A DNA stretch of 64,000 nt from Patescibacteria group bacterium (GTDB taxonomy: Bacteria > Patescibacteriota > Minisyncoccia > UBA6257 > GWB1-50-10). Below, in pieces: positions 2,220 through 53,471 of this stretch. A program made the position numbers and the translations under genes. How positions within the stretch are numbered: the stretch's first letter is position 1; every line of letters starts with the position of its first letter. The stretch spans positions 5,157-69,156 of the forward strand of contig JBBTQX010000004.1 of the NCBI GenBank assembly GCA_038065455.1, given 5' to 3'. The notes beneath the pieces were generated by a model. That model made no database searches and was not told where the DNA came from. It saw only the letters and a list, made by a program, of their open reading frames with translations.

Positions 2220-3233
2220 TTACATATCGAGCACCGGGCGGCGCTCTTTCCTTTCGGTCAGATAATTGAAGATTTCTTGGACTAAGACAGCAAGCGGAAC
2301 ACTTAAGATTATCCCCACAAAACCGGCGATTTGGGCCCCAGCCAAAAGGGAAACAACCACGATTACCGGGTGTACTCTCATACTCTTACCCATTATGATC
2401 GGAATGAGTATATGATTCTCAAATTGCTGGACAACAAAAAAGAATGCTAAAGCATACATACCCAACGCCGTGGAATCGGCGATAGCGATAACGAAGGCAA
2501 TAAGCCCAATCATTATAGGACCGATGATCGGCACCACCTCGAATATGGCGGCGAGAATACCCAAAATCAGAGCGTAGCGAACGCCAATAAACCACATTCC
2601 CAATCCCACCGCGAAACCGACGAATAGACTCAATACCAGCTGAGTGCCGAGCCAGCGGCGCATTTTTATCTTGAATCCGTCGAAAATGGATAGAATCGGC
2701 CGTTCGTAATCATCCGGGATGATAACCCGTATCATTTTTTCCGCTCCGTCTTTTTCAATACTCAAATAAAGTGTGACAAAAATCGAGGAGAAGAAAAGAA
2801 TGGCGTTTCCGAAGAGTTTAGTAATCGCGCCGGGAACGGAATTGCCCGCGCCCGAAATCAAATTCAATATCTGATCCGCTCCGATATTCAAACTTTCCAA
2901 ACTCAAGCTGAAATTGCCGAAACGAAAAACCGAAGTAACGAATTGAGTAAAATGGAAAAGGAAGCCGGCCAGTTCCTCGAAGATAACCGGCGCTATGATG
3001 TATATTCCGCCGGCAAAAACGGAAATAATGGCGAGAATCACGATGATGGAGGCGAAGACCCGACCGATTCTGGCTTTCTCGGCGAGAAAAGTGACGAATG
3101 GGTCTATTCCCATCGAAATCACAACACCCACAAGAAGAACGGTGAAAGCATCCCAGGCGAAATAAACGAGCGCGATGCCCGCCAGAAAGATAAAAATCCT
3201 CCATAAAGTCCCCCAAGCCACTTCCGTTTTCAT
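2220..3233 (-). CDS. AI-2E family transporter (PerM/YhhT-like)
   Basis: This is a polytopic membrane protein with an AI-2E-like core (RRWLGTQLVLSLF..VPIIGPIMIGLIAFVIA). The start is probably the ATG at 3231-3233 (MKTEVAWG), which overlaps the inverted repeat of the element at 3231-3361. Confidence 0.55.
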   Translation of the reverse strand: MKTEVAWGTLWRIFIFLAGIALVYFAWDAFTVLLVGVVISMGIDPFVTFLAEKARIGRVFASIIVILAIISVFAGGIYIIAPVIFEELAGFLFHFTQFVTSVFRFGNFSLSLESLNIGADQILNLISGAGNSVPGAITKLFGNAILFFSSIFVTLYLSIEKDGAEKMIRVIIPDDYERPILSIFDGFKIKMRRWLGTQLVLSLFVGFAVGLGMWFIGVRYALILGILAAIFEVVPIIGPIMIGLIAFVIAIADSTALGMYALAFFFVVQQFENHILIPIIMGKSMRVHPVIVVVSLLAGAQIAGFVGIILSVPLAVLVQEIFNYLTERKERRPVLDM

Positions 3234-3361
3234 CCCGTTAGAAACAGGATACGCCGCTTTGGCGCATCCGTTGGGAATCAAGCGACCTCCGAGATTTGAT
3301 TTTTCTCATAATTACCTTCATTTTTATATCTTTAGAATACACCGGTTTCTAACGGGATTCA
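3231..3361. mobile_element. small element bounded by inverted repeats (copy a)
   Basis: The ends are CATCCCGTTAGAAAC ... GTTTCTAACGGGAT, a 14-bp inverted repeat. Inside, next to the left arm, is the hairpin GGATACGCC..GGCGCATCC, and the rest is AT-rich. The flanking pentamers TTCAT/TTCAT form a possible direct repeat. Confidence 0.6.
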
Positions 3362-4627
3362 TACTTTCACTATATCAAGAAAACTCCTCTTCTTAAAGGG
3401 CCCGATGAGCGCCAGATTCAAGCCGTCGTTTCTTACCACTTCCCGCATAACTTTTCTTACGTCATTCGCGGTTATTCCGTTTACCTTCCGAGCCAGCTCC
3501 TGAGGCGAGGTGAGCTTCAGTCCCAGCATTTCCTGGCCGCCGTAGAAATAAGCCAATTCATCCGAGGTTTCGAGCGAGAGATAAAGATTGCCTATCAGAT
3601 GTTCTTTGGCTTTTTTGAGATCTTTTTCGCTCACCAATTCGTTCCGCAAACGGTTGAATTCTTCCAAACCGGCCCTAATAACCGTTTCGATTTTTGTATG
3701 CTCGATTCCCGCCGCCATCGTCAAAAGGCCGTGATCGGAATAAAGGTCGGCATCGGCCCGCACATAATAGGCGGCGCCGAGCTCTTCCCGAATTCTTTGA
3801 AAAAAGCGCGAGCTCATTCCCCCGCCCAGGATTTCGGCCGCGACCTGGAGGGCGATTCGCCGCTCGTCGTGGACGCCGAAAGCGCGGAACCCGAGAACCA
3901 AGTGGGTCTGGTCCGATTTTTTGAATTGAATGAGTTCCCGCGGCCTGGCCTGAATCTCTTTAACTTTGAGTTTTTTGCTTTTGGGTCCGGGCTTCAAAAC
4001 CGAAAAATATTTTTCGATTCTTTTCGCGATGTCTTTCTCGCCGAAAGCGCCCGCGACCGTCACAATCGTGGCTTGAGGCACGTAGTGTTTCGCCCGATAT
4101 TTCATGAAGTCGTTCCGGGTGATGCTCCGAATAACTTCTTTACGGCCGAGAATATCCCAACCCGCCGGCTGATTGCCGTAGACGAGATTCATAAAAAGGC
4201 TCTGAACCTTCCGAGAAGGCGTATCCTCGTACATATTGAACTCCTGGATAATGACGCCTTTTTCTTTTTCGATTTCCCGGGAATCAAATGTCGGATTCAG
4301 ATACATATCGGCCACCACGTCCAATATCTCGTTCACATTCTCTTTTTTCGCTTTTGCATAATAGCTCGTGGATTCCTGACTCGTGAAAGCATTGGATTGC
4401 GCCCCAAGCCCGTCCATCTCCGCCGCAATATCAATCGGCTTCGGCCGCTTTGCCGTACCTTTGAAGCACATATGCTCCAGAAAATGCGAGATGCCGCTTA
4501 TGTCTTTCGTTTCGTATTTCGAGCCGGCCTCCACCGACACCATTACGGTCGCCGCCAGACTGCCCGATTGGGGCGCGAGAATAATCCGCAGACCGTTTTT
4601 TAATTTAATTCTTCTGATATTTTTCAT
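3359..4627 (-). CDS. M16-family zinc peptidase (insulinase-like)
   Basis: HFLEHMCFKGT carries the inverted zinc-binding HxxEH motif. It is 422 aa. Confidence 0.85.
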   Translation of the reverse strand: MKNIRRIKLKNGLRIILAPQSGSLAATVMVSVEAGSKYETKDISGISHFLEHMCFKGTAKRPKPIDIAAEMDGLGAQSNAFTSQESTSYYAKAKKENVNEILDVVADMYLNPTFDSREIEKEKGVIIQEFNMYEDTPSRKVQSLFMNLVYGNQPAGWDILGRKEVIRSITRNDFMKYRAKHYVPQATIVTVAGAFGEKDIAKRIEKYFSVLKPGPKSKKLKVKEIQARPRELIQFKKSDQTHLVLGFRAFGVHDERRIALQVAAEILGGGMSSRFFQRIREELGAAYYVRADADLYSDHGLLTMAAGIEHTKIETVIRAGLEEFNRLRNELVSEKDLKKAKEHLIGNLYLSLETSDELAYFYGGQEMLGLKLTSPQELARKVNGITANDVRKVMREVVRNDGLNLALIGPFKKRSFLDIVKV

Positions 4628-18786: not shown

Positions 18787-20010
18787 TTATTTCTCGACTT
18801 GTTTTTCTTCCTCTCCGAAATCATTCTGACCTTCCTCTACCGCCGCCACGGCTACACCGCCTTCCTGCACCTCGTCCGGATTGGATTGCGAGCGCACATC
18901 TATCTTCCAACCCGTAAGTTTAGCCGCGAGCCGCACATTCTGTCCGCCTTTGCCGATTGCGAGGCTCAACTGGTCTTCGGAAACGAGCACCCGCGCTTCG
19001 CGCCGTTCCAATATTTCCACGAGCTTCGCCTTGGCGGGCGAAACGGAATTGCCGATGAACTTCGCCGGGTCATCGGACCACTCTATAATGTCTATTTTTT
19101 CGTTGCCGAGCTCGTTCGTCACCGCCATCACGCGCGTTCCGCGCTGGCCGACCGCCGAGCCGACGGGGTCCACGCCGTCTTCCTTCGAAGCGACCGCGAT
19201 TTTGGTGCGGCTGCCCGCTTCCCGCGCGATTTCTTTTACCTCCACCGTGCCTTCGGCAATCTCGGGCACCTCAAGTTCGAAAAGCTTTTTCACGAAATTC
19301 GGGTGCGAACGCGAAAGCACGATACCCGGCCGGCGCGGATCGTCCTGAACGGCCAAAACATAAAAGCGCATCCGGTCGCCCACGCGATAGTGCTCACCCG
19401 GAATGCTTTCGTTCGGATACATAATGCCCACCGCGCGCCCGAGATTCACGAAAACATTGCCCCGGTCGAAACGCTGAACTACTCCGCTCATAATCATTCC
19501 CTCTTTGTCCGCAAATTCGTCTTTTATTGACGAGCGCTCCGCCTCGCGGAGATTCTGCAAAATCACCTGCTTGGCCGTCTGCGCCGCGATGCGGCCGAAA
19601 TCGGCCTGTACCTCGAGCGGAAATTCCAATTCCTCTTCTATCTGGACATCCGATTTTATTTTTTTGGCATCCTCGAGGAATATGTGCCGGTCGGGATTAT
19701 ATCGCGGGAACTCTTCTTTTTCCTCCGCTCCCTGAGCCATGGGCGGCTGATTCTGAATCTGTTCTTCCTCTTCCGATTCGCTCACAATGCGCACTTGAGC
19801 GGGATCAACCACTGCCTTTACCTGCGAGAAATCCACATCCCCCGTTTTCAGGTTAAATTTGGCACGAATTATTTCCGAACGCTTCCGGTATTCTTTTTTA
19901 TAGGCGGCGGCGATGGCCGCTTCGATAGCGCCCAAAACTTTTTCCGCCGGTATTCCTTTTTCCGCGGCAATTTGTTCCGCCGCGCTCGCTAATGTTTTTA
20001 AATCCATCAT
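18787..20010 (-). CDS. nusA: transcription termination/antitermination factor NusA
   Basis: An N-terminal domain, an S1 domain and two KH domains are present (LSLAIGKGGQNVRLAAKLTGWKIDV). There is an acidic insertion in the middle. Confidence 0.85.
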   Translation of the reverse strand: MMDLKTLASAAEQIAAEKGIPAEKVLGAIEAAIAAAYKKEYRKRSEIIRAKFNLKTGDVDFSQVKAVVDPAQVRIVSESEEEEQIQNQPPMAQGAEEKEEFPRYNPDRHIFLEDAKKIKSDVQIEEELEFPLEVQADFGRIAAQTAKQVILQNLREAERSSIKDEFADKEGMIMSGVVQRFDRGNVFVNLGRAVGIMYPNESIPGEHYRVGDRMRFYVLAVQDDPRRPGIVLSRSHPNFVKKLFELEVPEIAEGTVEVKEIAREAGSRTKIAVASKEDGVDPVGSAVGQRGTRVMAVTNELGNEKIDIIEWSDDPAKFIGNSVSPAKAKLVEILERREARVLVSEDQLSLAIGKGGQNVRLAAKLTGWKIDVRSQSNPDEVQEGGVAVAAVEEGQNDFGEEEKQVEK

Positions 20011-20086
20011 GTTTGTTTAAAATTTTACCGCTCTCGAGGAGCGGATTACATATCAATAATATCCCAACCGATAAAACAATCAAGTA

Positions 20087-20115
20087 TTGACGTATTTATA
20101 TTATTATGATATACT
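20087..20115 (+). promoter_or_regulatory. sigma70-type promoter TTGACG-17-TATACT
   Basis: The -35 is at 20087-20092 and the -10 at 20110-20115. An AGGAGG Shine-Dalgarno sits at 20163-20168, before the ATG at 20175. Confidence 0.5.
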
Positions 20116-20174
20116 ACAATTAGCATAGAAAATTAACGATTTAATTTTTATTCACAATTTAATAGGAGGTTGTT

Positions 20175-20639
20175 ATGAAAAGAGAATTAAAGGCATTTTG
20201 GGTATCTTTATTCATCATTATTGCCATTCTAGTACTGATGATATTATTGAAAGTCACGGGTTATCGGGAATTTGATTTCGACCGCTCTGATAATCCTCTG
20301 CCGCCGAATCCTGTTATTAATTCTTCCCTTTGCGCCGAACTCGAAAAGGCTAAGGAGGGTGATTTTGTTGAATTCGATAGTCAGTGGCATGTTATAACCA
20401 ACATAAATTTCATTAACGATGGCGATGACCGGGATTATTATGTCATGCTCCTAAAATATGGCGGTATGATCAATATACCGGTTTACTATAATCGAGTCGA
20501 TGACAATGCACGGATTAGTCGGGTTATCCGGTGGGAAGAGGGCAATGAATCATCATTATCAATGATGAGTGATGTGCCGATCGGCCAAATAAAATGGAAG
20601 GCCGCGGCAAGGGAGTTTTTCAAAACAAACAAGCAGTGA
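20175..20639 (+). CDS. hypothetical N-terminally anchored protein (154 aa)
   Basis: A strong Shine-Dalgarno sequence precedes the ATG and the N-terminus has one TM helix. The gene is in an AT-rich region. Confidence 0.55.
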   Translation: MKRELKAFWVSLFIIIAILVLMILLKVTGYREFDFDRSDNPLPPNPVINSSLCAELEKAKEGDFVEFDSQWHVITNINFINDGDDRDYYVMLLKYGGMINIPVYYNRVDDNARISRVIRWEEGNESSLSMMSDVPIGQIKWKAAAREFFKTNKQ

Positions 20640-20958
20640 AATCCGAGTTAGTATGATAATGGCGACCAATTCATCGGCCGCCATTTTTATTTCCTAAAAC
20701 CGTTTAGATATATAACTAAAAAAACAAGGTAGTATAATTGACTATACCACCTGGTAATTAATCCTTGAGTAATTCTATTTTAAAGCAGGCCTTTTCTCTT
20801 AATTCCTGACTTATATTCTTTTTGTTCACCCGTGTCATATTGATTTCTTTTTATTCTAGCATATATAAATAGTTCGACATGCTATACCATCTGGTAGTCT
20901 AATTGATTAGACTACCCATTATAATATGTGAAATTAGGGACATATTCAAACATTTTCT

Positions 20959-21336
20959 TTAAATGTTTTCGTAGTGGCGGATTTCGAAAGCATCGGCTTC
21001 GGCAAACCCATTACTCTTCTTAACAAGAGCCACGAGATCCAGACGCCAGCCCCTTTTGTCGCTTATGAGCTCTTCGTGGGAACCCGCGTATATTTCCGCC
21101 GTCCGGCGGAATTTTTTCATCTTAGCTCCGGACATCTGGTCTTCCGGTTTCAATATCCCCGGCCTCATAGTCTTAACTTCCACAAAAACCAGGGTCTTAT
21201 CCGGTGCTATTACCACAATATCCAACTCGCCCCATTTCTCCCGCTTATTTCGTTCAATTACCCCATAACCCTTTCTTTTCAGATATTCGGCCGCAAAATC
21301 CTCCCCCTCCCGCCCCAATTCAGATTTTTGAGTCAT
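20959..21336 (-). CDS. YraN-family (UPF0102) putative endonuclease
   Basis: GREGEDFAAEYLKRKGYGVIERNKREKWGELDIVV...LVFVEVKTMR matches the YraN signature. The start is taken at the internal Met (MTQKS). Confidence 0.65.
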   Translation of the reverse strand: MTQKSELGREGEDFAAEYLKRKGYGVIERNKREKWGELDIVVIAPDKTLVFVEVKTMRPGILKPEDQMSGAKMKKFRRTAEIYAGSHEELISDKRGWRLDLVALVKKSNGFAEADAFEIRHYENI

Positions 21337-21772
21337 AGTAAGCAAATTTCCCGAATTTCCCCTGTTTGTGCAAATTGAATATTCTTCTATATGGATATGG
21401 GACGTTGGTATTCCCAATCTTCTCTATCCATTCCTGAAATTGAACTCCTTTGTAACCACGGAGTTTTCCATAAAAGAACGGAACGACCACATTTATAAGC
21501 GACAAATAATCCCTAACTATTAATGTCGCCATTTTACCCCTATTAACCCCGTCTTTTCTGTATGGACCACTAACATAAATACTATTACTGTTTATTTTTG
21601 GCAGCTTCATTGATGTTCTCATGAGCCTCAAAAGCTCTTCATCTCGTTGATGCATAGAAATAATAAAAGTTGGAACTTTTAGTTTTTCTTCTCTTTTTAC
21701 TCTTGTATCAAAGGTGAAGCAACCCTCTCCTTCTACTAATCCTCTGATATATTCATCAGAAAGTAGTTCCAT
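21320..21772 (-). CDS. free-standing single-motif LAGLIDADG homing endonuclease
   Basis: LSDEYIRGLVEGEGCF is the LAGLIDADG dodecapeptide. The protein is 150 aa. The island is AT-rich. A TGATATAAT -10 lies directly upstream. Confidence 0.75.
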   Translation of the reverse strand: MELLSDEYIRGLVEGEGCFTFDTRVKREEKLKVPTFIISMHQRDEELLRLMRTSMKLPKINSNSIYVSGPYRKDGVNRGKMATLIVRDYLSLINVVVPFFYGKLRGYKGVQFQEWIEKIGNTNVPYPYRRIFNLHKQGKFGKFAYYDSKI

Positions 21773-22042
21773 ATATAAATAATTATATCAAAAAATATTT
21801 GATAAAGTGTTTATGCACAAACACTTTTGACCCTTATTTTTCTCAAAATCCTAAAAACGTAATGCCAGTATGACTACCAGGTTTTGGAGTTATCAACAGT
21901 GTTTTACAATGTTTTACAAGATTCGTCAAAAGAGTAGCATTCATCGCGCTACCCGATAACCGCATGAAACCTACATATGTAGGTTTCATCGCATTATCGG
22001 GTTTTTCGGGTTTTACAGGTTTTTCAATTTAATCAAATAAAA

Positions 22043-22080
22043 GACCCTTTACCGAAAAACCGGCAAAAGGTCTAAAACAG
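22043..22080 (-). terminator. rho-independent terminator downstream of the ORF at 22090..22461
   Basis: On the minus strand the hairpin GACCTTTTGCCGG-ttttt-CGGTAAAGGGTC is followed by CTTTTATTT. Confidence 0.5.
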
Positions 22081-22089
22081 ATATATCAA

Positions 22090-22461
22090 TTAGACAGTAC
22101 GGGGAGTGGGGGAATTTCCGGAATATTTTGGTATTCTCTTCACCTTTTTCACGATATTCGACGCTTTTTTAAAAGCATACTCTGCACAATAACGCTGGGT
22201 TTGCAGATAATCATTATCCAAGATGTTTTTTGGATCAGATTCAAATATCACACATTCATTTTTTCGCGCGAAATCATCACATTTCTTTTTTGCCTCTCTC
22301 CATTTATAGCTCAATTCATTCAATTTATTCCTGATTTCATAATCAGAAACCTGCGCCGGCCATTTCCCGAAAATCTTCCGAAAACGCCAAGCCGGACTGA
22401 ACAAAAATGCTACTGGCAAAAATAGGGCGATTAAAGCCAAAAGATACAAAAGATTTGACAT
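22090..22461 (-). CDS. hypothetical membrane-anchored protein (123 aa)
   Basis: The N-terminus has one TM helix (LLYLLALIALFLPVAFLF). No recognisable motif was found. Confidence 0.45.
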   Translation of the reverse strand: MSNLLYLLALIALFLPVAFLFSPAWRFRKIFGKWPAQVSDYEIRNKLNELSYKWREAKKKCDDFARKNECVIFESDPKNILDNDYLQTQRYCAEYAFKKASNIVKKVKRIPKYSGNSPTPRTV

Positions 22462-22535
22462 AAGACCTCCTTAAAAATGAAAGTTAGGTTTTGAAATATT
22501 GGTTTATAAAGCTATCTGATTCAATTAAACAACTA

Positions 22536-23282
22536 CTATAGAACTCTGTCAATAAACCTCTTTGTCTCTTCCGGACCGGATACTTTTACGCATTTTATTC
22601 CGGCTTTCTTAGCCGAATAGTCATTCCCGCCGGGAAAGAGGGTGTCGCCGAAAAAAACAACATCTTTTTTTGAAATCTTAAAGAACTTCATCAGTTTTTT
22701 TATAGCATAGCCTTTATCGATGCCTTTCTTGGTGATATCAATCGAGGTGAGCCCGCCTTGGCGAACTTCGAAATTCGGCAGGATTTTTTTCATAAATTTT
22801 ACGATCCTGGGCCGAATATCTCGCCGGCGGTTCCATTCTTTTTTAAACGGCAGGGGAGCGCGGTCGCCCAAAGCCGAGAATGTCACCTGAGTTCCGCGAT
22901 TCTCAATCGTGACTCCGAATATGCGTTTGGGATATTCAAAATCGGCTTCAAAAAGCCCTTTATTCAAGGCTTTTTTTATTCTCGCCAAGTCTTTTCGGTT
23001 AAGCCTTATCTCATACTCTTTCCGCCAACCTTTCCTATAGGAGAAGAACGAAGCGCCATTGGTGGGGAAAAGGAACAAATTATGGAGATTTATCGACTCT
23101 TTTTCGAGCGGTTTCAAAAGTTGTTCCTTGAAAAGTGCCAATTTGCCGCCGCCCACAACCGCCACCTTGGTTTTTTGGGTCAGTTTGGCGAGAATTTTGG
23201 CCATACCGCGATCGATCGGCATCTTACTTTTCGCAAGCGTTCCATCCAAATCGAAAATGAAGACTTTTTTGTCCTTGAGCAT
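22536..23282 (-). CDS. HAD-IIB family hydrolase, phosphomannomutase-like
   Basis: FIFDLDGTL is HAD motif I. FFGDTLFPGGNDY resembles the eukaryotic-type phosphomannomutase C-terminal motif. Confidence 0.6.
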   Translation of the reverse strand: MLKDKKVFIFDLDGTLAKSKMPIDRGMAKILAKLTQKTKVAVVGGGKLALFKEQLLKPLEKESINLHNLFLFPTNGASFFSYRKGWRKEYEIRLNRKDLARIKKALNKGLFEADFEYPKRIFGVTIENRGTQVTFSALGDRAPLPFKKEWNRRRDIRPRIVKFMKKILPNFEVRQGGLTSIDITKKGIDKGYAIKKLMKFFKISKKDVVFFGDTLFPGGNDYSAKKAGIKCVKVSGPEETKRFIDRVL

Positions 23283-25487: not shown

Positions 25488-26136
25488 AAAGAAAAAATTA
25501 AACAATCTCATCCTTGAAGCTTTGAAACTCAAAGGGATGAATCTGGAAAAGCTTTCCCAGCTGACCGGGGTTTCCGAACATTCGCTCGCTCTGCTTCTTG
25601 AGGAGCAATTCGACAAATTGCCGCCCGCGCCCTATGTCCGCGGCTATTTGCTCAAGATCGCCGAGGTTCTGAACCTGGACGGCCGGGAACTTTGGCGGGA
25701 ATATCTTAAAAATAACGAGGAAATCCGCCGTTCCGGCAAAGAAGATATCTTGCCGTTGAACCGGTTCGCCATACCGAAACTCAATAAAAAAATTGTCGCA
25801 ATTTCCGGAGCGGTTATTTTGTTCGTCGCGCTCGTCATTTTCCGCCTGCCGGCTTTTTTCGGCCAGCCGGAACTCGAAATTTCGAATATTGACGAGAATC
25901 CGACCATTGTCCGCGAGGCCACGTTCGCCGTCCGTGGTATAATGAATCCGACTGATGAACTTATGATAAACGGCGAGGTCATCTATCCTCAAAAAGACGG
26001 AAACTTCGAAAAAAACATATTGCTTCAGCCCGGCTTCAATAATGTAGTGTTCCAAATAAAAAAATTGCTTGGTCGAGTCTATATGGTAGAAAAACAAATT
26101 TTCTATCAAACCAAAGAAAAAAATGAAACCCAATAA
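25462..26136 (+). CDS. RodZ-like helix-turn-helix membrane protein
   Basis: The N-terminal helix-turn-helix region reads [43 protein letters not shown]. It is followed by one TM helix and then a beta-rich C-terminal domain. Confidence 0.5.
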
Positions 26137-27166
26137 ACAGGAAAAGGAAAAAGCCGGCGAGAGCATTGATTCACTCATCGAATCCATCCAGTCGCGCTTC
26201 GGCGACGGCTCCATAATGAGGTTAGGAGAAAATCATCATTCCAAGGTGGCGGTCGTGCCTTCCGGTTCGTTCTCGTTGGATATCGCCCTAGGCGGAGGAT
26301 TGCCCAAAGGAAGAGTAATCGAAATATTCGGACCGGAATCTTCCGGCAAGACGACGCTCGCGCTCCACGCGGTCGCCGAAGCACAGAAGCGCGGCGGCAA
26401 GGCTGCTTTTATAGATGCCGAACACGCCCTTGATCCGGAATATGCCGCGCGCATCGGCGTGAAGGTGAAAGACCTCATTATTTCCCAGCCGGACAACGGC
26501 GAAGAGGCGCTGAATATCCTGGAAAGCCTCGTGCGCTCCAACATTATAGACGTGGTGGTAATAGATTCCGTCGCGGCCCTCACCCCGAAGGCCGAAATCG
26601 AGGGCGAGATGGGTCAATCGCATATGGGGCTCCAAGCGCGCCTCATGTCCCAAGCCCTCCGCAAACTCACCGCTATCGCGGACAAATCCGGCACGATAGT
26701 TATTTTCATAAACCAGACTCGGATGAAGATCGGCCTCGTCTTCGGCAATCCTGAAACGACGACCGGCGGAATGGCTTTAAAATTCTATGCCTCCGTTCGC
26801 ATCGATATCCGCCGCATCGCCCAGGTAAAAAAGGGGGAGGATATTATCGGCAACCGGGTGAAGGCCAAAATAGTCAAAAATAAAGTGGCACCGCCTTTCC
26901 GCATTGCCGAATTCGACATTATGTATGGCGAGGGCATTTCCTACGAAGCCGATGTGATGAACACCGCCTTGAAATACGAAGTAATGAAAAAGAACGGCGC
27001 GAGTTTTTCTTTCGGCGAAGAGAAGTTGGGAGTCGGATTCGACAATGTCCGGCTGAAACTCAAAGAAGACAAAAAACTCCTTGAATCGATAAAGAAAAAG
27101 ACCCAGGAGGCAGCCGACAAAAAGATTATAATTGGAGCTAGTCCTTCAACTGTTAGCGAAGAATAA
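26123..27166 (+). CDS. recA: recombinase RecA
   Basis: [19 protein letters not shown] is the Walker A region. The L1 and L2 loop regions are conserved. Confidence 0.95.
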
Positions 27167-31025: not shown

Positions 31026-31032
31026 TGGATTG

Positions 31033-31106
31033 TCGGCCCGGAAGGACTCGAACCTTCGAATAGACGAGGTATAAGCTCGTTGCATTAGCCGCTATGCTAC
31101 GGGCCG
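31033..31106 (-). tRNA. tRNA with anticodon UAU, putative tRNA-Ile2(UAU) reading AUA
   Basis: The cloverleaf has acceptor CGGCCCG/CGGGCCG, D-arm GCAT-AGCGGCTA-ATGC, anticodon arm ACGAG-CTTATAC-CTCGT, a 6-nt variable loop, T-arm GAAGG-TTCGAGT-CCTTC and discriminator A. It directly abuts the ftsH stop codon. Confidence 0.65.
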
Positions 31107-43368: not shown

Positions 43369-44256
43369 CTAATTCCAAGCTATTGAAGTGGCATCTACAT
43401 CACCGTCAAGCGCCGTCATCCAAAAGATGGCTTGCCGCTCAACTTTACCGCTTAAGCTTTTTCCAATGTCCACCGTATCAGTGGACCCATTTTGAAATTT
43501 AACAAGCGTTCTTCCGGTAACAATCACGTCAACCATACGTCGGTAATTATAATTGTAAAGATCTATCTTTTCGCTCCGCACGCCTTTTGTAAGGTGTATC
43601 GGAAAAGAAATCAGATCTTTTTTCTCCGGCTCTGTAGGGATGTTCGCAACGGAATTCTGATAAATTACCGTTGCTACAACCGGCGATTGTTTCACCGATG
43701 TAGTATCTAACAGCCAACCTGCCGTCTTCCCATCCCATCTGCTTACCGCCCCACCAACAGCATTTAAAGTTGATGGAATAACCGCGTACAAGAAGAAAAG
43801 AATTGTAATCCCGATTGCCAGAAAAGTTAACACACTTCTGGAACTGGTCACGAATTTTTCCATCCCATAGGGATCATACGATGGAAGAAATATTAATGCC
43901 AGAATAACAAGTAAAAATACCGGAATCAGTGATACAACACTTGTTATTGGAACTATTACCAAATAAAGAGCGAATAATAATTCGAATCCCAGCACCAATC
44001 CAATCAATGTCAGAAGACGCCTTCCTCCACTTATCAGTGCAACAGCGCCAATTAGCAGGGGATCAGCCACAACCATAAAGAATAGGAGAATCCCAATTAA
44101 AGCGAATGTGACTGTAAGCCATGGATATCCAAATAATGCGACGATAACAATTAAAAACGGATACAAAAAAGAGATAATAATTGCTATCTTTAAAATTAAC
44201 CAAACCATTAGTACCTGTGGGGTACGGAAAATTTCTACTATTGTTCTCATTGCCAT
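43369..44256 (-). CDS. hypothetical polytopic membrane protein (295 aa)
   Basis: It has at least five TM helices and a hydrophilic C-terminal domain. It overlaps the upstream ORF by 10 nt, so the two are probably an operon. Confidence 0.45.
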   Translation of the reverse strand: MAMRTIVEIFRTPQVLMVWLILKIAIIISFLYPFLIVIVALFGYPWLTVTFALIGILLFFMVVADPLLIGAVALISGGRRLLTLIGLVLGFELLFALYLVIVPITSVVSLIPVFLLVILALIFLPSYDPYGMEKFVTSSRSVLTFLAIGITILFFLYAVIPSTLNAVGGAVSRWDGKTAGWLLDTTSVKQSPVVATVIYQNSVANIPTEPEKKDLISFPIHLTKGVRSEKIDLYNYNYRRMVDVIVTGRTLVKFQNGSTDTVDIGKSLSGKVERQAIFWMTALDGDVDATSIAWN

Positions 44257-44828
44257 TCTCCTTTCTTTTCACCTCTGAATTTTCTTAACCAATTTGCGGC
44301 ATTTTTATCCGCCTCATTGAAGCTTTCCCAAAAACCTTTTCCTTTGGGTTTGTCGTCAGCAATAACCGGTTCTTCTTTCTTACCGAAGAAGATATCATCA
44401 AAGAGTTGGAGCTCTTTCTTTATCTTCTCCGCTTCTTTTTCCATGTCCATATCACCGGCTTTTTCCAGACGTTCGAATATTTTACCAACAAAAGCTGCTC
44501 TAGTGCTTTCTGCGGCTTTAGAGGAAATATCCTTTTTTTGTTTTTTTCCAGACACGTCTCCTTCTTTTTTGTTATCCAGTCTATCTGAAACATATTCCAA
44601 AAAATCGGAGCTTTTTTCCATTATCGCCGAAAGAAATGGATTAGAAACTTTCTCTGCTCTTCCTTCTATCCAACTGGTAAAAAGATCGAAACCTCTCTTT
44701 AAGATAGGGTTATTTCTTAATTTACTATCCTCCGGGATAAATTTTTCAACGAACAAGTCGGCAAGTTTTTCCAACTCTGTATTGAAGAAACTCAATGCCT
44801 CATTTACGTGTTGTTTTTTAACAGCCAT
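44247..44828 (-). CDS. hypothetical protein (193 aa), Lys/Glu-rich
   Basis: A strong Shine-Dalgarno sequence (GGAAAGGAG) and a promoter lie upstream. The gene is in a low-GC region. No recognisable motif was found. Confidence 0.45.
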   Translation of the reverse strand: MAVKKQHVNEALSFFNTELEKLADLFVEKFIPEDSKLRNNPILKRGFDLFTSWIEGRAEKVSNPFLSAIMEKSSDFLEYVSDRLDNKKEGDVSGKKQKKDISSKAAESTRAAFVGKIFERLEKAGDMDMEKEAEKIKKELQLFDDIFFGKKEEPVIADDKPKGKGFWESFNEADKNAANWLRKFRGEKKGEWQ

Positions 44829-44904
44829 TTTTACATCTCCTTTCCTTCCTTTCGGAAGAATCTAGTTATAAGTTAGTTATTTATTATGACAATATTCTGC
44901 TTAT

Positions 44905-44933
44905 ATCTTAGCATAGAACAAATTAGTTGTCAA
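44905..44933 (-). promoter_or_regulatory. sigma70-type promoter TTGACA-17-TAAGAT (minus strand)
   Basis: The -35 is the reverse complement of tgtcaa at 44928-44933. The -10 is the reverse complement of atctta at 44905-44910. Confidence 0.5.
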
Positions 44934-44950
44934 TTACTCGTAAGGCACAT

Positions 44951-45326
44951 TCAACCCTCAAGTGCAACACTCATCACCTCCTGGGGTGTTCTCCACCCCA
45001 GACGTTTTCTTGGTCTTGAATTTAATGCGCGTTCGACATACGCGATATCTTCTTCCTGTATCATAGTGAAATCAGTCTTCTTGGGGAAGTAGTCTCGGAT
45101 GAGGCCATTCGTGTTTTCGTTCGTGAGCCAGACGAGGGGTATATACTCTGCGCTCCCCGGGAAAGTTTCTCTGCAGCTCCCTGGAGACTGACGATGGAGA
45201 GCGATTCAAAACAAAAGCAATAGAACGGACCGATTCCCTTTTCCACCTCATCACCTGAATGATTTCCCTCTCTTCGATTGAAAAATGTTGATATGACATA
45301 CACTTCATTTTACCGAAGTGTTGCAC
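44951..45326 (-). pseudogene. IS30-family transposase pseudogene (core deleted, frameshifted)
   Basis: The evidence is as for the element above. The two homologous segments are in different reading frames and together cover about 145 of the roughly 340 aa expected. Confidence 0.65.
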
Positions 45327-45335
45327 TTACTTGTT
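44951..45335 (-). mobile_element. internally deleted IS30-family element (remnant) with 12-13 bp terminal inverted repeats
   Basis: The inverted repeats are AAGTGCAACACT at 44959-44970 and AGTGTTGCACTT at 45320-45331. The transposase N-terminal helix-turn-helix region (HFSIEEREIIQ..RSPSSVSRELQRN) is present. The C-terminal tail (PLVWLTNENTNGLIRDYFPKK..LNSRPRKRLGWRTPQEV) is present in a different frame. The DDE catalytic core is missing. Confidence 0.7.
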
Positions 45336-45385
45336 GAACTAACTAAATCGCGGTATTATGCGATAAATAAAGGGTATTTTAGCAT

Positions 45386-45469
45386 GGGCAGGTGGCGAAA
45401 TTGGCAGACGCACCAACTTTAGGAGTTGGCGATCGCAAGGTCTTGTGGGTTCAAGTCCCACCCTGCCCA
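45386..45469 (+). tRNA. tRNA-Leu (anticodon UAG), type II with long variable arm
   Basis: The acceptor stem is GGGCAGG/CCTGCCC. The anticodon arm is CCAAC-TTTAGGA-GTTGG. The long variable arm is CGATCGCAAGGTCTT. The T-arm is GTGGG-TTCAAGT-CCCAC. Confidence 0.85.
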
Positions 45470-45496
45470 CTAGATAATTATTAATTCTCCGTATTG

Positions 45497-45530
45497 GGGC
45501 CTGAAACCGATTATTTATCGGTTTGTTTTT
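45497..45530 (+). terminator. rho-independent terminator after tRNA-Leu
   Basis: The hairpin AAACCGAT-tattt-ATCGGTTT is followed by GTTTTTGTT. Confidence 0.55.
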
Positions 45531-45550
45531 GTTCCTATGTTTTATCATTA

Positions 45551-45584
45551 CTATCCTATTTATCCGACCGGATAAATAGGATAG
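45551..45584. promoter_or_regulatory. 15-4-15 perfect palindrome CTATCCTATTTATCC-gacc-GGATAAATAGGATAG (operator-like)
   Basis: It lies downstream of the PaaX-like gene at 45644..46231. A related ATCCTATC-ggaaa-GATAGGAT palindrome lies upstream of the same gene. Confidence 0.5.
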
Positions 45585-45643
45585 TAAGAAGACAAAATAA
45601 AAAACGTGGAAATAACAATATTGGAAATCGGCAAAAACGAATC

Positions 45644-46231
45644 TTAGTTGATTTGTTTTAAACTTCCCGCCTTGCTGATTTCAAAAATTTCGACAAAATC
45701 AACCATATTAAACTTATCCAAATCATCGATGAATTGTTTTGGGATTTTTACTTTGCCAACCCATACGCTTTTCTGAATCATTTTCAAGTCCAGGTTTTTT
45801 AAAACTTCTCTAATCCAGGCTCGCTTTGATCTTTCTTTTTCCGGAATATCGAAAACAACAATGGTAAATTGACCCTTTTCTTTCGAATAGCTCATAGGCC
45901 GAGGCAATCTTTTTATATTATCCAATTTCAATTTTTCAAGTTTTTCTTTTCCTTTTCCGGTAATGGAGAAGAAATTTGTCTTGTTTCTCGCTTCAACTTT
46001 TATAAGGCCGTCTTCTTTTAGTTTATAAAGAAGGTTGTAATATTTTTGTTTAATTTCCGCTTCTTTTTTTCTTCCGGCTCTATCGTCTTTTATTTTATAT
46101 GTCTCGTGTTCCATTCTACCAATGGAGGCACCGTAACCGGCATTCAAGAAAGCATTGAAAAAATCAAAACTATTAATTGTCATATCTCCTAAAACCTCCA
46201 AAACCTTCAATAAAATATCTCCTTTAGCCAT
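45644..46231 (-). CDS. PaaX-like transcriptional regulator family protein
   Basis: FTIVVFDIPEKERSKRAWIREVLKNLDLKMIQKSVWVG resembles the PaaX C-terminal domain pattern W.G.W.lv..ipe..R..R..lr..L...Gf..lq.SVw. It is a paralog of the gene at 55294..55863. Confidence 0.5.
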   Translation of the reverse strand: MAKGDILLKVLEVLGDMTINSFDFFNAFLNAGYGASIGRMEHETYKIKDDRAGRKKEAEIKQKYYNLLYKLKEDGLIKVEARNKTNFFSITGKGKEKLEKLKLDNIKRLPRPMSYSKEKGQFTIVVFDIPEKERSKRAWIREVLKNLDLKMIQKSVWVGKVKIPKQFIDDLDKFNMVDFVEIFEISKAGSLKQIN

Positions 46232-46254
46232 ATTTTTATTATACTATCTTATTA

Positions 46255-46275
46255 ATCCTATCGGAAAGATAGGAT
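46255..46275. promoter_or_regulatory. palindrome ATCCTATC-ggaaa-GATAGGAT overlapping the -35 region of the PaaX-like gene promoter
   Basis: It is followed on the minus strand by TAGTATAAT and an AAGGAG Shine-Dalgarno before the ATG at 46231. Confidence 0.5.
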
Positions 46276-46316
46276 AGTGATTCTATTAATAAAATAAATA
46301 GAAGAATATCTTCTTA

Positions 46317-47210
46317 CTATTTGCGGCGGCGGGCGTGGAAGGTCTGATGGATTTCCTTGAGCTCCTTATTGGTCAGGTGGGTATAGACCTGGGTGGTCGA
46401 AATATTGGCGTGGCCCAGAAGCGACTGGACCGAACGCAGGTCGGCGCCGTTTATAAGAAGGTCGGTGGCAAACGAGTGTCGGATTTGATGGGGGTGGACT
46501 TTTTTCGGGATGCCGGCTTTTTTGGCGTAGAAAGAAGTTAATCTCTGAACGGAACGGGGATTTATCCGGCCGATTACCTTGTTCTTTTTGGTCAGGCTCG
46601 CGAAAAGGTATTCCTCGGTATCGCTTCTTTTTTCCAAATAGTTTTTAATGGATTTTTTGGCCCCCTCCGACAGAAAAACCACCCGGAGCTTGTCGCCTTT
46701 TCCGCGCACGGATATTTCGCCCCGCTCCAAATCCAGATAGCGGGGGAGGGCGCAAAGTTCGGAGAGCCGGAGACCGGTCGAGAAAAATGTTTCCAAAATT
46801 GCCCGGTCCCGAAGCGAGCGCAAATCCTTCCCGTCGGGAGCCGAAACCAGGCGCTCCAATTCTTTATAGTCCAGGGTTTCAATGTCGCGTCGGGAAACCC
46901 TCGGCAACTCTATTTTTTCCGGAGCGAGCACTTTTATATCGCGCTTCAGGAGATATTTCAAAAGATTGCGAATGGCGATTACGTAATAACTCTGGGTATT
47001 TTTTTTCAAATCTTTGCGGGAAAGATTTACCCGGAAGTCGCGCACCGCATCCTCCGTAATATCCTTAATGGAACGGATTTTCTGGTTTTCCAGAAAAAAT
47101 TTCAGGTAGCGCCCATAGTTCTCGCGCGTCTTCCGCGAGCGGTTTCTTTCCACCTCCAGATAGTCCAGATAATCCTTGAGATATTTTTCCGCTTCGGTCA
47201 TTTGTTTCAT
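46317..47210 (-). CDS. tyrosine recombinase (XerC/XerD-like phage-integrase family)
   Basis: The C-terminal catalytic motifs are present (HQIRHSFATDLL, LLGHANISTTQVYTHL). The N-terminus has a SAM-like domain. It is 297 aa. Confidence 0.8.
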   Translation of the reverse strand: MKQMTEAEKYLKDYLDYLEVERNRSRKTRENYGRYLKFFLENQKIRSIKDITEDAVRDFRVNLSRKDLKKNTQSYYVIAIRNLLKYLLKRDIKVLAPEKIELPRVSRRDIETLDYKELERLVSAPDGKDLRSLRDRAILETFFSTGLRLSELCALPRYLDLERGEISVRGKGDKLRVVFLSEGAKKSIKNYLEKRSDTEEYLFASLTKKNKVIGRINPRSVQRLTSFYAKKAGIPKKVHPHQIRHSFATDLLINGADLRSVQSLLGHANISTTQVYTHLTNKELKEIHQTFHARRRK

Positions 47211-47225
47211 CTTACCACTTCTGTC

Positions 47226-47437
47226 GCAAAAGGTTTGGGGGTATCCCTAGTTCCCTCAAAAAACACGCTATCAAATTCCCCAGTGCCGATAACCTCCGGT
47301 TATCGAGCATCCACGATTGCTTTCGCAATCGGGACGTGGAATTTGCGCTCGCTCTCGGCCTCGCTCTTCCGCTTCGCGGAAACCATGCCCACTCGGCCTG
47401 CGAGACGGTTTTCTTGAGGAAATTAGGGATACCCCAT
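47226..47437. ncRNA. candidate structured RNA: long closing stem enclosing a three-way junction (possible S15-binding leader or 6S-like RNA). The strand is unknown.
   Basis: GGGGTATCCCTAGTTCCCTCAA at 47226-47247 pairs with TTGAGGAAATTAGGGATACCCC at 47416-47437. Inside are the nested helix CAAATTCC/GGAATTTG and the hairpins CGATAACC-tcc-GGTTATCG and CGATTGC-ttt-GCAATCG. The region is GC-rich. It lies directly upstream of rpsO. Confidence 0.3.
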
Positions 47438-51932: not shown

Positions 51933-53471
51933 ATGCCGGCGGTTCCCAAACTTTATTCCGCAGAATTGGATGGTGTAAACGCCGAACTTATCGAAGTGGA
52001 GGCCGACTTGAATGTCGGCCTCCATTCTTTCAACATCGTCGGTCTCGCCGACAAGGCCCTAACGGAAGCGAAGGAGCGGGTTAATTCCGCCCTCAAAAAT
52101 TCCGGCATTAAGCCGCCCTCAAAAGAGAATCGGCGCATCACCATAAATCTCGCGCCGGCCGACGTGAAAAAAGTCGGCTCGAGATTCGACCTGCCTGTCG
52201 CGCTCGCTTATCTTTTGGCAAGCGAGCAATTAAAAAGTTTTGAAACGAAAGATAAGATGTTTATCGGCGAGCTTTCGCTCGACGGCGCCTTGCGTCCGGT
52301 CGCGGGCGCTTTGAACGCGGCGCTTCTCGCCCAAAGAAAAGGTTTCAAAGAAATATTCGTTCCGGCGGGAAACGCGGTCGAGGCCGCGATTCTCGAAAAC
52401 ATCAAGGTTTTTGGCGTGAAAAATCTGGTCGAAATAATCGGGCACCTGGAAGGAACCGCGCCCATCGCTCCGCAAATAAAGACCGAGATGACTCCCGGAT
52501 ATTCGGGGGTTTTCGTGAAACTGAGCGAGGTCAGGGGCCAGGCGGCGGCCAAACGGGCGCTTATAATCGCCGCGGCGGGCGGCCACAATCTGCTCTTCTC
52601 GGGTCCGCCCGGCACAGGAAAAACAATGCTGGCCCAGGCGATGAATTCGATTATTCCACCGCCCTCCCTCGAAGAAACAATCGAAATAACGGAGATTTGG
52701 AGCGCCGCCGGCCTTTTGAATCGGGCGAGTCCGGTTATCGATTTCCGCCCTTTTCGGGCGCCGCATCACAACGCCTCGCTTATATCCATTATCGGGGGCG
52801 GTTCGATTCCTAAACCGGGCGAGATAAGTCTGGCTCACCGGGGCGTGCTCTTCTTGGATGAGATGCCGGAATTCCATCGCGACGCGCTCGAGAGCCTGCG
52901 CCAACCGCTCGAATCCGGCTCGGTAAGCATCGCCCGTTCCAAAAAATCGCTGGTTTTTCCGGCCCGATTCATCCTTGTTGCCGCGATGAATCCCTGCCCC
53001 TGCGGATATTTCAACGACCCGGAAAAAGAATGCCGGTGCACGGCGAACGAGGTATTCCGCTACCACAAAAAGATTTCCGGGCCACTAATGGACCGGATTG
53101 ATATCCAACTTGAAGTGCCAAGGATACCCGTCGAAGAACTGCGACGAGAAGAAAACAGCGAAAACGATGAACCAGTCAGAAAAAAAATTAGGGAGGTGAG
53201 AGATGTTCAGCGGGAAAGATTTAAAAAAAACGGCTTCAAAATATTCACGAATGCCGAAATGTCTTCGCGCCAGACGGAACAAATTGCGAAACTCGAGACT
53301 GGAGCGGAAAATTTCCTCAAGGAAACTTTGGAAAAGAATTTCATTTCCATCCGCGGCTATTACCGCATCCTCAAAGTTTCCCGAACCATCGCCGATCTCG
53401 AAGAAAGTTTGGAAATAAAAACGGACCACTTGGCGGAAGCGTTCCAGTATAGGCTGAAAATTGGGGAATAA
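51933..53471 (+). CDS. comM: YifB/ComM family Mg-chelatase-like AAA+ ATPase
   Basis: The N-terminal domain resembles the Lon protease domain. The Walker A motif is GPPGTGKT. VLFLDEMPEF is present. Confidence 0.85.
   Translation: MPAVPKLYSAELDGVNAELIEVEADLNVGLHSFNIVGLADKALTEAKERVNSALKNSGIKPPSKENRRITINLAPADVKKVGSRFDLPVALAYLLASEQLKSFETKDKMFIGELSLDGALRPVAGALNAALLAQRKGFKEIFVPAGNAVEAAILENIKVFGVKNLVEIIGHLEGTAPIAPQIKTEMTPGYSGVFVKLSEVRGQAAAKRALIIAAAGGHNLLFSGPPGTGKTMLAQAMNSIIPPPSLEETIEITEIWSAAGLLNRASPVIDFRPFRAPHHNASLISIIGGGSIPKPGEISLAHRGVLFLDEMPEFHRDALESLRQPLESGSVSIARSKKSLVFPARFILVAAMNPCPCGYFNDPEKECRCTANEVFRYHKKISGPLMDRIDIQLEVPRIPVEELRREENSENDEPVRKKIREVRDVQRERFKKNGFKIFTNAEMSSRQTEQIAKLETGAENFLKETLEKNFISIRGYYRILKVSRTIADLEESLEIKTDHLAEAFQYRLKIGE

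Follow-up and report, generated by a model that had tools for sequence, protein, structure and literature searches.

A probable free-standing LAGLIDADG homing endonuclease gene family in a single slot 5′ of yraN, within parS-like repeats of Patescibacteria

The window analysed here, a stretch of 64,000 nucleotides from a metagenome-assembled genome of a Patescibacteria group bacterium (contig JBBTQX010000004.1), contains on its minus strand a small LAGLIDADG gene (21320-21772) whose 3′ end overlaps the start of yraN (UPF0102; 20959-21336). Both genes lie in the region 20040-22500, which holds four open reading frames (ORFs) in all (20175-20639 on the plus strand, and 20959-21336, 21320-21772 and 22090-22461 on the minus strand). 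It is flanked by NusA (18787-20010) on one side and by a HAD/PMM-type hydrolase (22536-23282), then FtsK, an HTH_25 protein and RecA, on the other. A preliminary description, made from the sequence alone, had called this region AT-rich. That was borne out by a GC content of 0.371 against a mean of 0.468 for the window, making it the most AT-rich stretch for its size, with only 0.2% of 2460-bp segments equally low. The overlapping pair of a 150-amino-acid single-motif LAGLIDADG gene and yraN, also reported there, was confirmed by matches to PF00961 and PF02021 and by a 17-nt overlap between the two genes.

The LAGLIDADG ORF matches PF00961 (LAGLIDADG_1) with an E-value of 3.3e-9. Its single motif, YIRGLVEGEGCF, can be read as IRGLVEGEG. 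The catalytic acid, which the preliminary description had singled out for checking, is kept: E16 aligns with the catalytic Glu of I-PanMI/I-OnuI-type GEG motifs, and position 16 is acidic in 32 of 32 aligned homologues with identities down to 43%, among which the motif YIRGLVEGEGCFTF is nearly invariant. An AlphaFold2 monomer model (predicted local distance difference test score 90.5) has an alpha-beta-beta-alpha-beta-beta-alpha core, with helices at residues 6-16, 42-54 and 89-100 and strands at 17-26, 29-41, 63-68 and 81-86. A Foldseek search with this model placed the I-OnuI family and I-TnaI on top, with a probability of 1.00 to I-OnuI, I-TnaI and I-SmaMI. The best single-domain structural match was I-TnaI (PDB 5gkk; TM ~0.58), and the Glu of GxxEGEG in the window protein resembles the catalytic Glu of the I-OnuI family. 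The fold is thus that of I-CreI, I-MsoI, I-CeuI, I-TnaI and the I-OnuI family, a likeness from which a palindromic target would be expected, although identities are only 16-25% and all of those enzymes are intron-encoded. Because a single domain must cut both strands, the protein would act as a homodimer. Single-domain enzymes of the candidate phyla radiation (CPR), such as I-ShaI, form homodimers and cut their own insertion site (PMC11270868).

Neither an intron nor an intein surrounds the gene. Its ORF lies between genes or runs into the yraN start without splitting any host gene, and an Rfam scan gave no match at gathering thresholds or at E<=10, on which basis a group I intron or other RNA was rejected. 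The preliminary description was therefore right in seeing neither an interrupted host gene nor a group I intron, and its identification of a free-standing LAGLIDADG homing endonuclease gene is upheld by the lack of an intron or intein, by the retained catalytic acid and by the mobility signatures described below. The family, for which a search of 5.8 billion proteins gave 36 clusters, is compact and confined to one Parcubacteria/Paceibacterota-type clade of Patescibacteria. It comprises 39 representative clusters at E<=1e-30, beyond which ordinary two-domain LAGLIDADG proteins mix in, and 169 relatives in Joint Genome Institute (JGI) metagenome contigs. A scan of viral contigs found no member, so a phage-borne vector was ruled out, and membership in a defence system was dismissed because PADLOC matched no system and returned weak generic 'HEase' models only (E>=6e-5).

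The overlapping gene, yraN, encodes a PD-(D/E)xK nuclease of 125 amino acids. Its product matches PF02021 with an E-value of 2e-19 (70.2 bits against a cut-off of 23.6), and D39, E53 and K55 are invariant in the alignment; it scores below the NCBIfam equivalog cut-offs (84.2 against 109) and is thus a family-level member only. YraN has been described by Hardy et al. (bioRxiv 10.1101/2024.02.06.579203) as the nuclease that, as the partner of ComM, resolves the D-loop of transformation. The co-occurrence of YraN with a ComM helicase (Hardy et al.) is seen in the window, whose 64 kb also encode a ComM-type Mg_chelatase protein (51933-53471) and RecA (26123-27166). With ComM, RecA and YraN all encoded, a recombination route for homing by transformation is therefore available.

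The endonuclease gene has a fixed position relative to yraN. In looked-up contexts of homologues with 45-78% identity, a UPF0102 gene was immediately adjacent in six of six, and in Genome Taxonomy Database (GTDB) loci the LAGLIDADG gene was adjacent and divergent to yraN in seven of seven, so that the contexts not anchored in metagenomes combine to 13/13. Among LAGLIDADG-anchored metagenome loci, yraN was adjacent in 71/80 (69 divergent, 2 tandem), and only two of the nine negatives, L131 and L143, possess more than 700 bp of upstream flank. In L131 the gene (2995-3417) sits between dksA-like and ftsH genes, away from yraN, and Arg replaces the catalytic Glu (EGRG, E16R); in L143 an intact family member (1744-2211), also away from yraN, lies beside rpsT/holA-like genes. 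The endonuclease gene invariably lies 5′ of yraN, with mostly 20-120 bp between the start codons of divergent pairs. The tandem orientation is rarer and was seen in the window, L001, L002 and L097.

Presence in this slot is patchy. A yraN-anchored scan with one genome per species yielded 80 loci. In these, a hidden Markov model scan detected the LAGLIDADG gene seven times among the 25 closest species-level yraN loci and not once outside that clade. It is missing from the closest yraN locus, L017 (66% YraN identity), and likewise from the syntenic loci L018, L020, L029 and L030, and in a YraN tree the loci with and without it interleave within one clade. The empty sites contained no LAGLIDADG remnants at E<=1, and degraded copies in them were rejected on this result. 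Occupied and empty slots differ by a segment about the size of the ORF, the paired lengths being 489 vs 71 bp (L003/L024), 598 vs 182 bp (L007/L023) and 523 vs 154 bp (L015/L037).

The gene also moves independently of its neighbour. Pairwise identities of the LAGLIDADG protein and YraN are poorly related (Spearman 0.15). Between L003 and L101, synonymous divergence (dS) is 0.14 for the LAGLIDADG gene and 1.12 for yraN, and a tract at L003:5968-6357 is 98-100% identical while the surrounding DNA is ~80% identical. By contrast, in L012/L151, L150/L160 and L120/L132, YraN is 82-88% identical and the LAGLIDADG protein only 54-62%. The flanks of L137 and L032 are 98-99.7% identical, and the place of the LAGLIDADG segment in L137 is taken in L032 by an IS200-like Y1 transposase; their divergence starts exactly at the yraN ATG and stops within the repeat array described below. 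The slot is a hotspot for different selfish genes. The two loci (L137, 2730-3680; L032, 1710-2417) are from Hainich groundwater strains. Finally, in 38 of 38 relatives the LAGLIDADG gene has a lower GC content than the remainder of the locus, with a mean difference of -0.108. What is looked for in a homing gene, namely sporadic presence at a fixed site with a phylogeny discordant with the flanks, was therefore found. As far as sequence comparison can tell, the mobility signatures together fit a site-specific homing endonuclease gene exchanged among lineages and misfit a vertically fixed host gene.

The DNA around the slot is itself distinctive. LAGLIDADG upstream regions share 16-bp elements made of TGTTTnnC half-sites, and 33 of 34 strict matches in 77 unique loci with the gene fall within ~650 bp of the gene start. 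The 64 kb of the window contain one match to this motif class against 0.26 expected. It lies at 21808-21823, 35 nt upstream of the LAGLIDADG gene, and forms the core, TGTTTATGCACAAACA, of an imperfect parS-like palindrome with 12-nt arms (21804-21827) found in motif and palindrome scans. When one mismatch was allowed, for which the background is 0.019 sites per kb, 31 of 78 unique loci had a site ending <=40 nt before the LAGLIDADG ATG, 23 had one starting <=40 nt past the stop codon, and 19 had both.

These elements also occur where the endonuclease gene does not. They lie upstream of yraN in 18/18 endonuclease-free clade loci, with 66 of their 75 parS-like sites within 1.3 kb upstream of yraN, and arrays of up to 10-11 such 16-mers directly precede yraN (L026:4538-4995, L036:4730-4992, L019, L027 and L031), with a period of 48-49 bp in L026 and ~81 bp in L036. 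In L026, L031, L038, L040 and L041 the array unit is exactly TGTTTCACGTGAAACA, the canonical chromosomal parS 16-mer (PMC5450999). Other genomes carry variants with changed central bases, or with direct rather than inverted half-sites such as TGTTTCACGTTTTACA, and the window site TGTTTATGCACAAACA departs from canonical parS in its central bases. The heptamer-containing repeat GTTTTACA occurs eight times in the window against 1.29 expected, with three copies at 21901-22017. A repeat scan showed two direct TGTTTTACA half-site repeats, 10 bp apart, on the plus strand (21899-21918), and the third GTTTTACA at 22010-22017. We assign these repeats to the same system because the same heptamer builds the direct-type 16-mers in relatives. 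A palindrome, GTT(T/C)GCCGGCAAAC, is also present inside the yraN coding sequence of one subclade (L007:5727, L023:5176, L037:5173), where it covers the LPAN codons in a variable loop; it resembles the upstream 16-mers, possibly by coincidence.

Next to the parS-like sites, a palindrome scan revealed an inverted pair of an 'X-box', CCGATAATGCGATGAAACCTACA, with 26-nt arms forming a 52-bp palindrome (21951-22002; minus-strand copy 21978-22000), beside which run GAAAAAC(C) tracts phased at ~10-11 bp (22001-22030, minus strand). The X-box is 80-95% identical in loci with and without the endonuclease gene. X-boxes and GAAAAAC tracts alternate with parS-like sites in the window (21951-22030), L017 (2311-2477), L020 (4761-4874) and L018 (2655-2717), and the X-box is nearly identical among genomes whose proteins are only 50-80% identical. 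The X-box region had no Rfam match, and an intrinsic terminator or structured RNA was rejected for the X-box pair, since a hairpin arises only where two copies are inverted while copies elsewhere are single or direct. The palindromes and short direct repeats noted in the preliminary description are thus real; however, they are host features rather than island ends, because this conserved non-coding repeat region also precedes yraN in relatives without the endonuclease gene.

Judged by its repeats, the array would be centromere-like and unusually dense for a chromosome. Relatives resemble plasmid centromere arrays in carrying exact parS in tandem, up to 10 units at 48-49 bp spacing, upstream of yraN; the F sopC centromere, for comparison, consists of 12 x 43 bp repeats. 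Chromosomal parS sites, by contrast, are usually dispersed, whereas here they form tight intergenic arrays, many sites have changed central bases or direct half-sites, and the window copy is degenerate. Such a dense parS-like array upstream of yraN in this clade appears not to have been described before. Several other identities were considered for the repeats and rejected. No LexA/SOS box (TGTT-N8-AACA) lies near recA and only one occurs in the window. REP/RayT-type genome-wide repeats, an idea raised by the IS200-like gene of L032, do not agree with a motif that is locus-confined, with one match in 64 kb and 33/34 within ~650 bp of the gene. A CRISPR-like array or uptake sequences, suggested by the 48-bp periodicity and the phased T-tracts, were discarded since the repeats are 16-20 bp and degenerate, no cas genes are adjacent and the motif is not genome-wide.

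The position of the repeats raises the possibility that the ORF is a passive cassette, moved or lost by homologous or short-homology recombination between bracketing 16-mers that serve as portable homology in transformation, with no homing. Such 16-mers bracket the ORF in 19-31 of the 78 unique loci, often only 0-15 nt from the ATG or stop codon, replacement boundaries fall in repeats or at the yraN ATG, and the window encodes the RecA, ComM and YraN that such exchange would use. However, a roleless gene leaves the conserved catalytic Glu, the fold and a ratio of nonsynonymous to synonymous substitution (dN/dS) of ~0.1 unexplained, and the slot holds only this gene family, with one transposase as the exception. 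We consider this explanation quite improbable.

In the window lineage the LAGLIDADG ORF is oriented opposite to that of most relatives, and the two genes form an apparent operon with yraN as the second cistron. The 17-nt overlap, ATGACTCAAAAATCTGA (21320-21336, minus strand), joins the 3′ end of the LAGLIDADG gene to the yraN start codon, so that the yraN ATG (21336) falls within the last five LAGLIDADG codons; the same overlap is found in L001 and L002. An extended -10 element, TGATATAAT (21782-21790, minus strand), ends 9 nt before the LAGLIDADG ATG and is predicted to drive a near-leaderless LAGLIDADG-yraN transcript as its promoter; homologues are preceded by equivalent TGnTATAAT elements. 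Downstream of yraN, a terminator-like hairpin followed by a T-run (20727-20752, minus strand) is the likely operon end, and a second terminator-like hairpin (22042-22073, minus strand) ends the ORF at 22090-22461 and parts it from the LAGLIDADG-yraN unit. Read toward yraN, the order is therefore X-box pair, half-site repeats, degenerate parS-like palindrome, TGATATAAT, LAGLIDADG ATG (21772), yraN ATG and hairpin. In the endonuclease-free L017, a TATAAT-like sequence of its own immediately precedes the same MTQKSELG start; in the window, LAGLIDADG codons occupy that position. Because the LAGLIDADG stop overlaps the yraN start, yraN in the window lineage probably no longer has a proximal promoter of its own, and its expression probably depends on the promoter of the endonuclease gene. 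Such promoter coupling would penalise loss of a selfish gene.

Combining the fixed slot, the patchy presence and the exchange signatures, we favour the explanation that this is a free-standing, single-domain, site-specific LAGLIDADG homing endonuclease gene family residing in one slot 5′ of yraN, inside a host parS-like 16-bp repeat array, and give it a probability of roughly 0.68. In alleles of the repeat region that lack the endonuclease gene, the dimer would cut a (pseudo)palindromic site of ~16-22 bp, and recombinational repair from an endonuclease-bearing copy, plausibly acquired via natural transformation, would then copy the ORF in. Intronless homing of this kind has been described for free-standing endonuclease genes (PMC3984707).

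Selection on the gene bears on whether it instead serves the host. The dN/dS of the LAGLIDADG gene is 0.05-0.18, like that of yraN, which by codon comparison indicates that it is under purifying selection. Two disrupted copies were seen: a nonsense copy in L118 (2998-3450), with a single CGA>TGA change relative to L109, and a copy in L158 (240-710) with TGA at the Gly17 codon of the motif, representing either a nonsense mutation or UGA=Gly recoding. A domesticated LAGLIDADG protein could have a host function tied to yraN and/or the array, as a binder, nickase or regulator specific to the parS-like sites or as a YraN partner, with the patchiness reflecting repeated loss. Purifying selection as strong as that on yraN, deep persistence in one slot, the scarcity of decayed copies, the same 16-mer element before the ATG of both genes, and the operon fusion with its 17-nt overlap in the window, L001 and L002 would all be in keeping with this. 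By contrast, among the 25 closest species-level genomes, 18 lack the gene but retain yraN and the arrays; a transposase replaces it in a strain with nearly identical flanks; and lateral exchange and lineage replacement have proceeded independently of yraN, with foreign GC in all 38 hosts. The LAGLIDADG catalytic residue is also kept, whereas known domesticated LAGLIDADG regulators (WhiA) have lost theirs. A domesticated role therefore seems unlikely to us, if less so than a passive cassette.

Several observations nevertheless count against the homing explanation. Conservation of the family equals that of yraN (52% vs 49% mean pairwise identity) and pseudogenes are few, although a purely selfish endonuclease gene should decay once fixed. 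The similar cis-elements preceding both yraN and the LAGLIDADG gene, together with the operon fusion in the window, fit a host-beneficial or co-regulated role equally well. Alignments of occupied and empty junctions yielded no clear recognition sequence, and the 60-105 bp that fill the slot in empty alleles (e.g. L024) contain no obvious palindrome. In addition, shared phylogeny makes the sampled loci non-independent, and many of the contigs are short.

As to the target itself, perfect palindromes are rarer in loci that carry the gene and are therefore a candidate. They make up 7 of 112 sites (6%) in loci with the gene and 20 of 73 (27%) in loci without it, and perfect canonical parS occurs in 5 of 18 clade loci that lack the gene but in 0 of the 78 unique loci that carry it, both comparisons ignoring phylogeny. 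In L020, a relative of the window that lacks the endonuclease gene, the perfect palindrome TTGTTTGTCGACAAACAA is found 77 nt ahead of yraN; the corresponding site of the window is degenerate. Sites of this kind also bracket the ORF. A homodimeric LAGLIDADG enzyme could thus target the perfect parS-type palindromes of 16-20 bp in the centromere-like array, parasitising chromosomal ParB-binding sites, with carriers surviving through asymmetric or degenerate sites. We offer this proposal, drawn from the repeat sequences, as a tentative one and doubt it more than we credit it: some carriers of the gene keep perfect variant palindromes, and intact parS-like sites beside the gene in many carriers are awkward if these sites are the target.

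The arrangement differs from known systems. In bacteria, LAGLIDADG endonucleases have mostly been described from introns and inteins; in Patescibacteria the known examples come mainly from introns of rRNA and tRNA genes. The rRNA-intron single-domain enzymes of CPR bacteria (I-ShaI; Tsurumaki et al. 2024, PMC11270868) share the phylum-level hosts, a single domain of ~150 amino acids and hence dimeric action, and the Pfam family, but lie inside group-I-like insertions of 16S/23S rRNA genes and cut the rRNA gene, whereas the yraN-slot family is intergenic and intronless. Phage free-standing endonucleases (T4 Seg/Mob and cyanophage F-CphI; PMC3984707, PMC6083498) are similar in that the ORF lies between conserved genes, is present or absent at a fixed site, is AT-rich and is accompanied by co-conversion-like mosaic tracts; unlike the family described here, which is LAGLIDADG and chromosomal in bacteria, they are GIY-YIG, HNH or EndoVII enzymes of phage genomes. 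A literature search found no paper tying LAGLIDADG to yraN. A chromosomal intronless family in one intergenic slot, with signatures of gain, loss and exchange, offers a tractable case for the spread of a selfish nuclease in uncultured, naturally competent, genome-reduced bacteria. Its location beside the transformation nuclease gene yraN and in centromere-like repeats suggests testable links among homing, transformation and segregation sites, and the family could supply compact dimeric meganucleases with palindromic targets.

The wider region was also reconsidered. The preliminary description had proposed that 20040-22500 as a whole was acquired horizontally as one islet between nusA and the HAD gene, two genes that would be expected to adjoin each other in relatives. 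The low GC along the stretch is in line with this, yet the AT-richness is uneven: GC is 0.481 for yraN, 0.358 for the LAGLIDADG gene, 0.38-0.41 for the two small ORFs and 0.26-0.33 for intergenic DNA. L018, L020, L029 and L030, all without the endonuclease gene, keep the synteny FtsK-(HAD)-YraN-NusA-pyrophosphatase, so that in these relatives yraN stands between FtsK/HAD and NusA, contrary to the expected adjacency of nusA and the HAD gene. Because yraN is kept at its syntenic place without the endonuclease gene and has genome-average GC, it is a core host gene rather than an islet member; the same genes at the same place in relatives with similar GC, which the preliminary description had itself taken to mark core genome, is what was found for yraN. 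The closest endonuclease-bearing relatives in turn lack the small ORFs, no convincing direct repeats flank the region, and a search for island boundaries found no integrase or tRNA nearby. Acquisition as one unit was thus rejected and is very improbable, since yraN is at this position in all relatives with or without the endonuclease gene and the components are distributed differently, although the mobile LAGLIDADG gene within the proposed islet stands. The AT-rich 'island' is a composite in which core yraN and a mobile endonuclease gene are accompanied by two unrelated ORFans and by AT-rich spacers that carry repeats.

The two ORFans are neighbours outside the element. One encodes 154 amino acids (20175-20639, plus strand) and the other 123 (22090-22461, minus strand). 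Both are lineage-specific, have a hydrophobic N-terminal segment and are preceded by AGGAGG ribosome sites, and the two membrane-protein genes reported earlier therefore exist, but not as parts of one islet. Profile searches gave neither a family match, and no homologue of either was present in any fetched locus; a protein database search found a single homologue (80%) of the first, and among 5.8 billion proteins the second had a single match, 99% identical and self-like. Both are missing from L001, a 78%-identical locus, where other small genes hold their positions. Of the two promoters that had been called canonical, TTGACG-17-TATACT exists at 20087-20115, whereas the LAGLIDADG promoter is an extended -10 element without a good -35. 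Promoter-like sites are unenriched over shuffles (8 vs 9.9).

Elsewhere in the window, a tRNA-Ile with anticodon TAT (UAU) lies at 31032-31106 on the minus strand, beside tRNA-Val(TAC); in most bacteria AUA is read by a lysidine-modified CAU tRNA. The GC-skew profile of the window has no extremum at 21-22 kb, and a replication origin at the yraN locus was ruled out for that reason. The cumulative GC skew reaches its minimum at ~45.5 kb, in an AT-rich stretch (43500-47300) that contains a tRNA-Leu (45386-45470), a PaaX/Cas2-like protein (45644-46231) and a XerC/D-type tyrosine recombinase (46317-47210), and that may lie near the origin or represent an integrated element.

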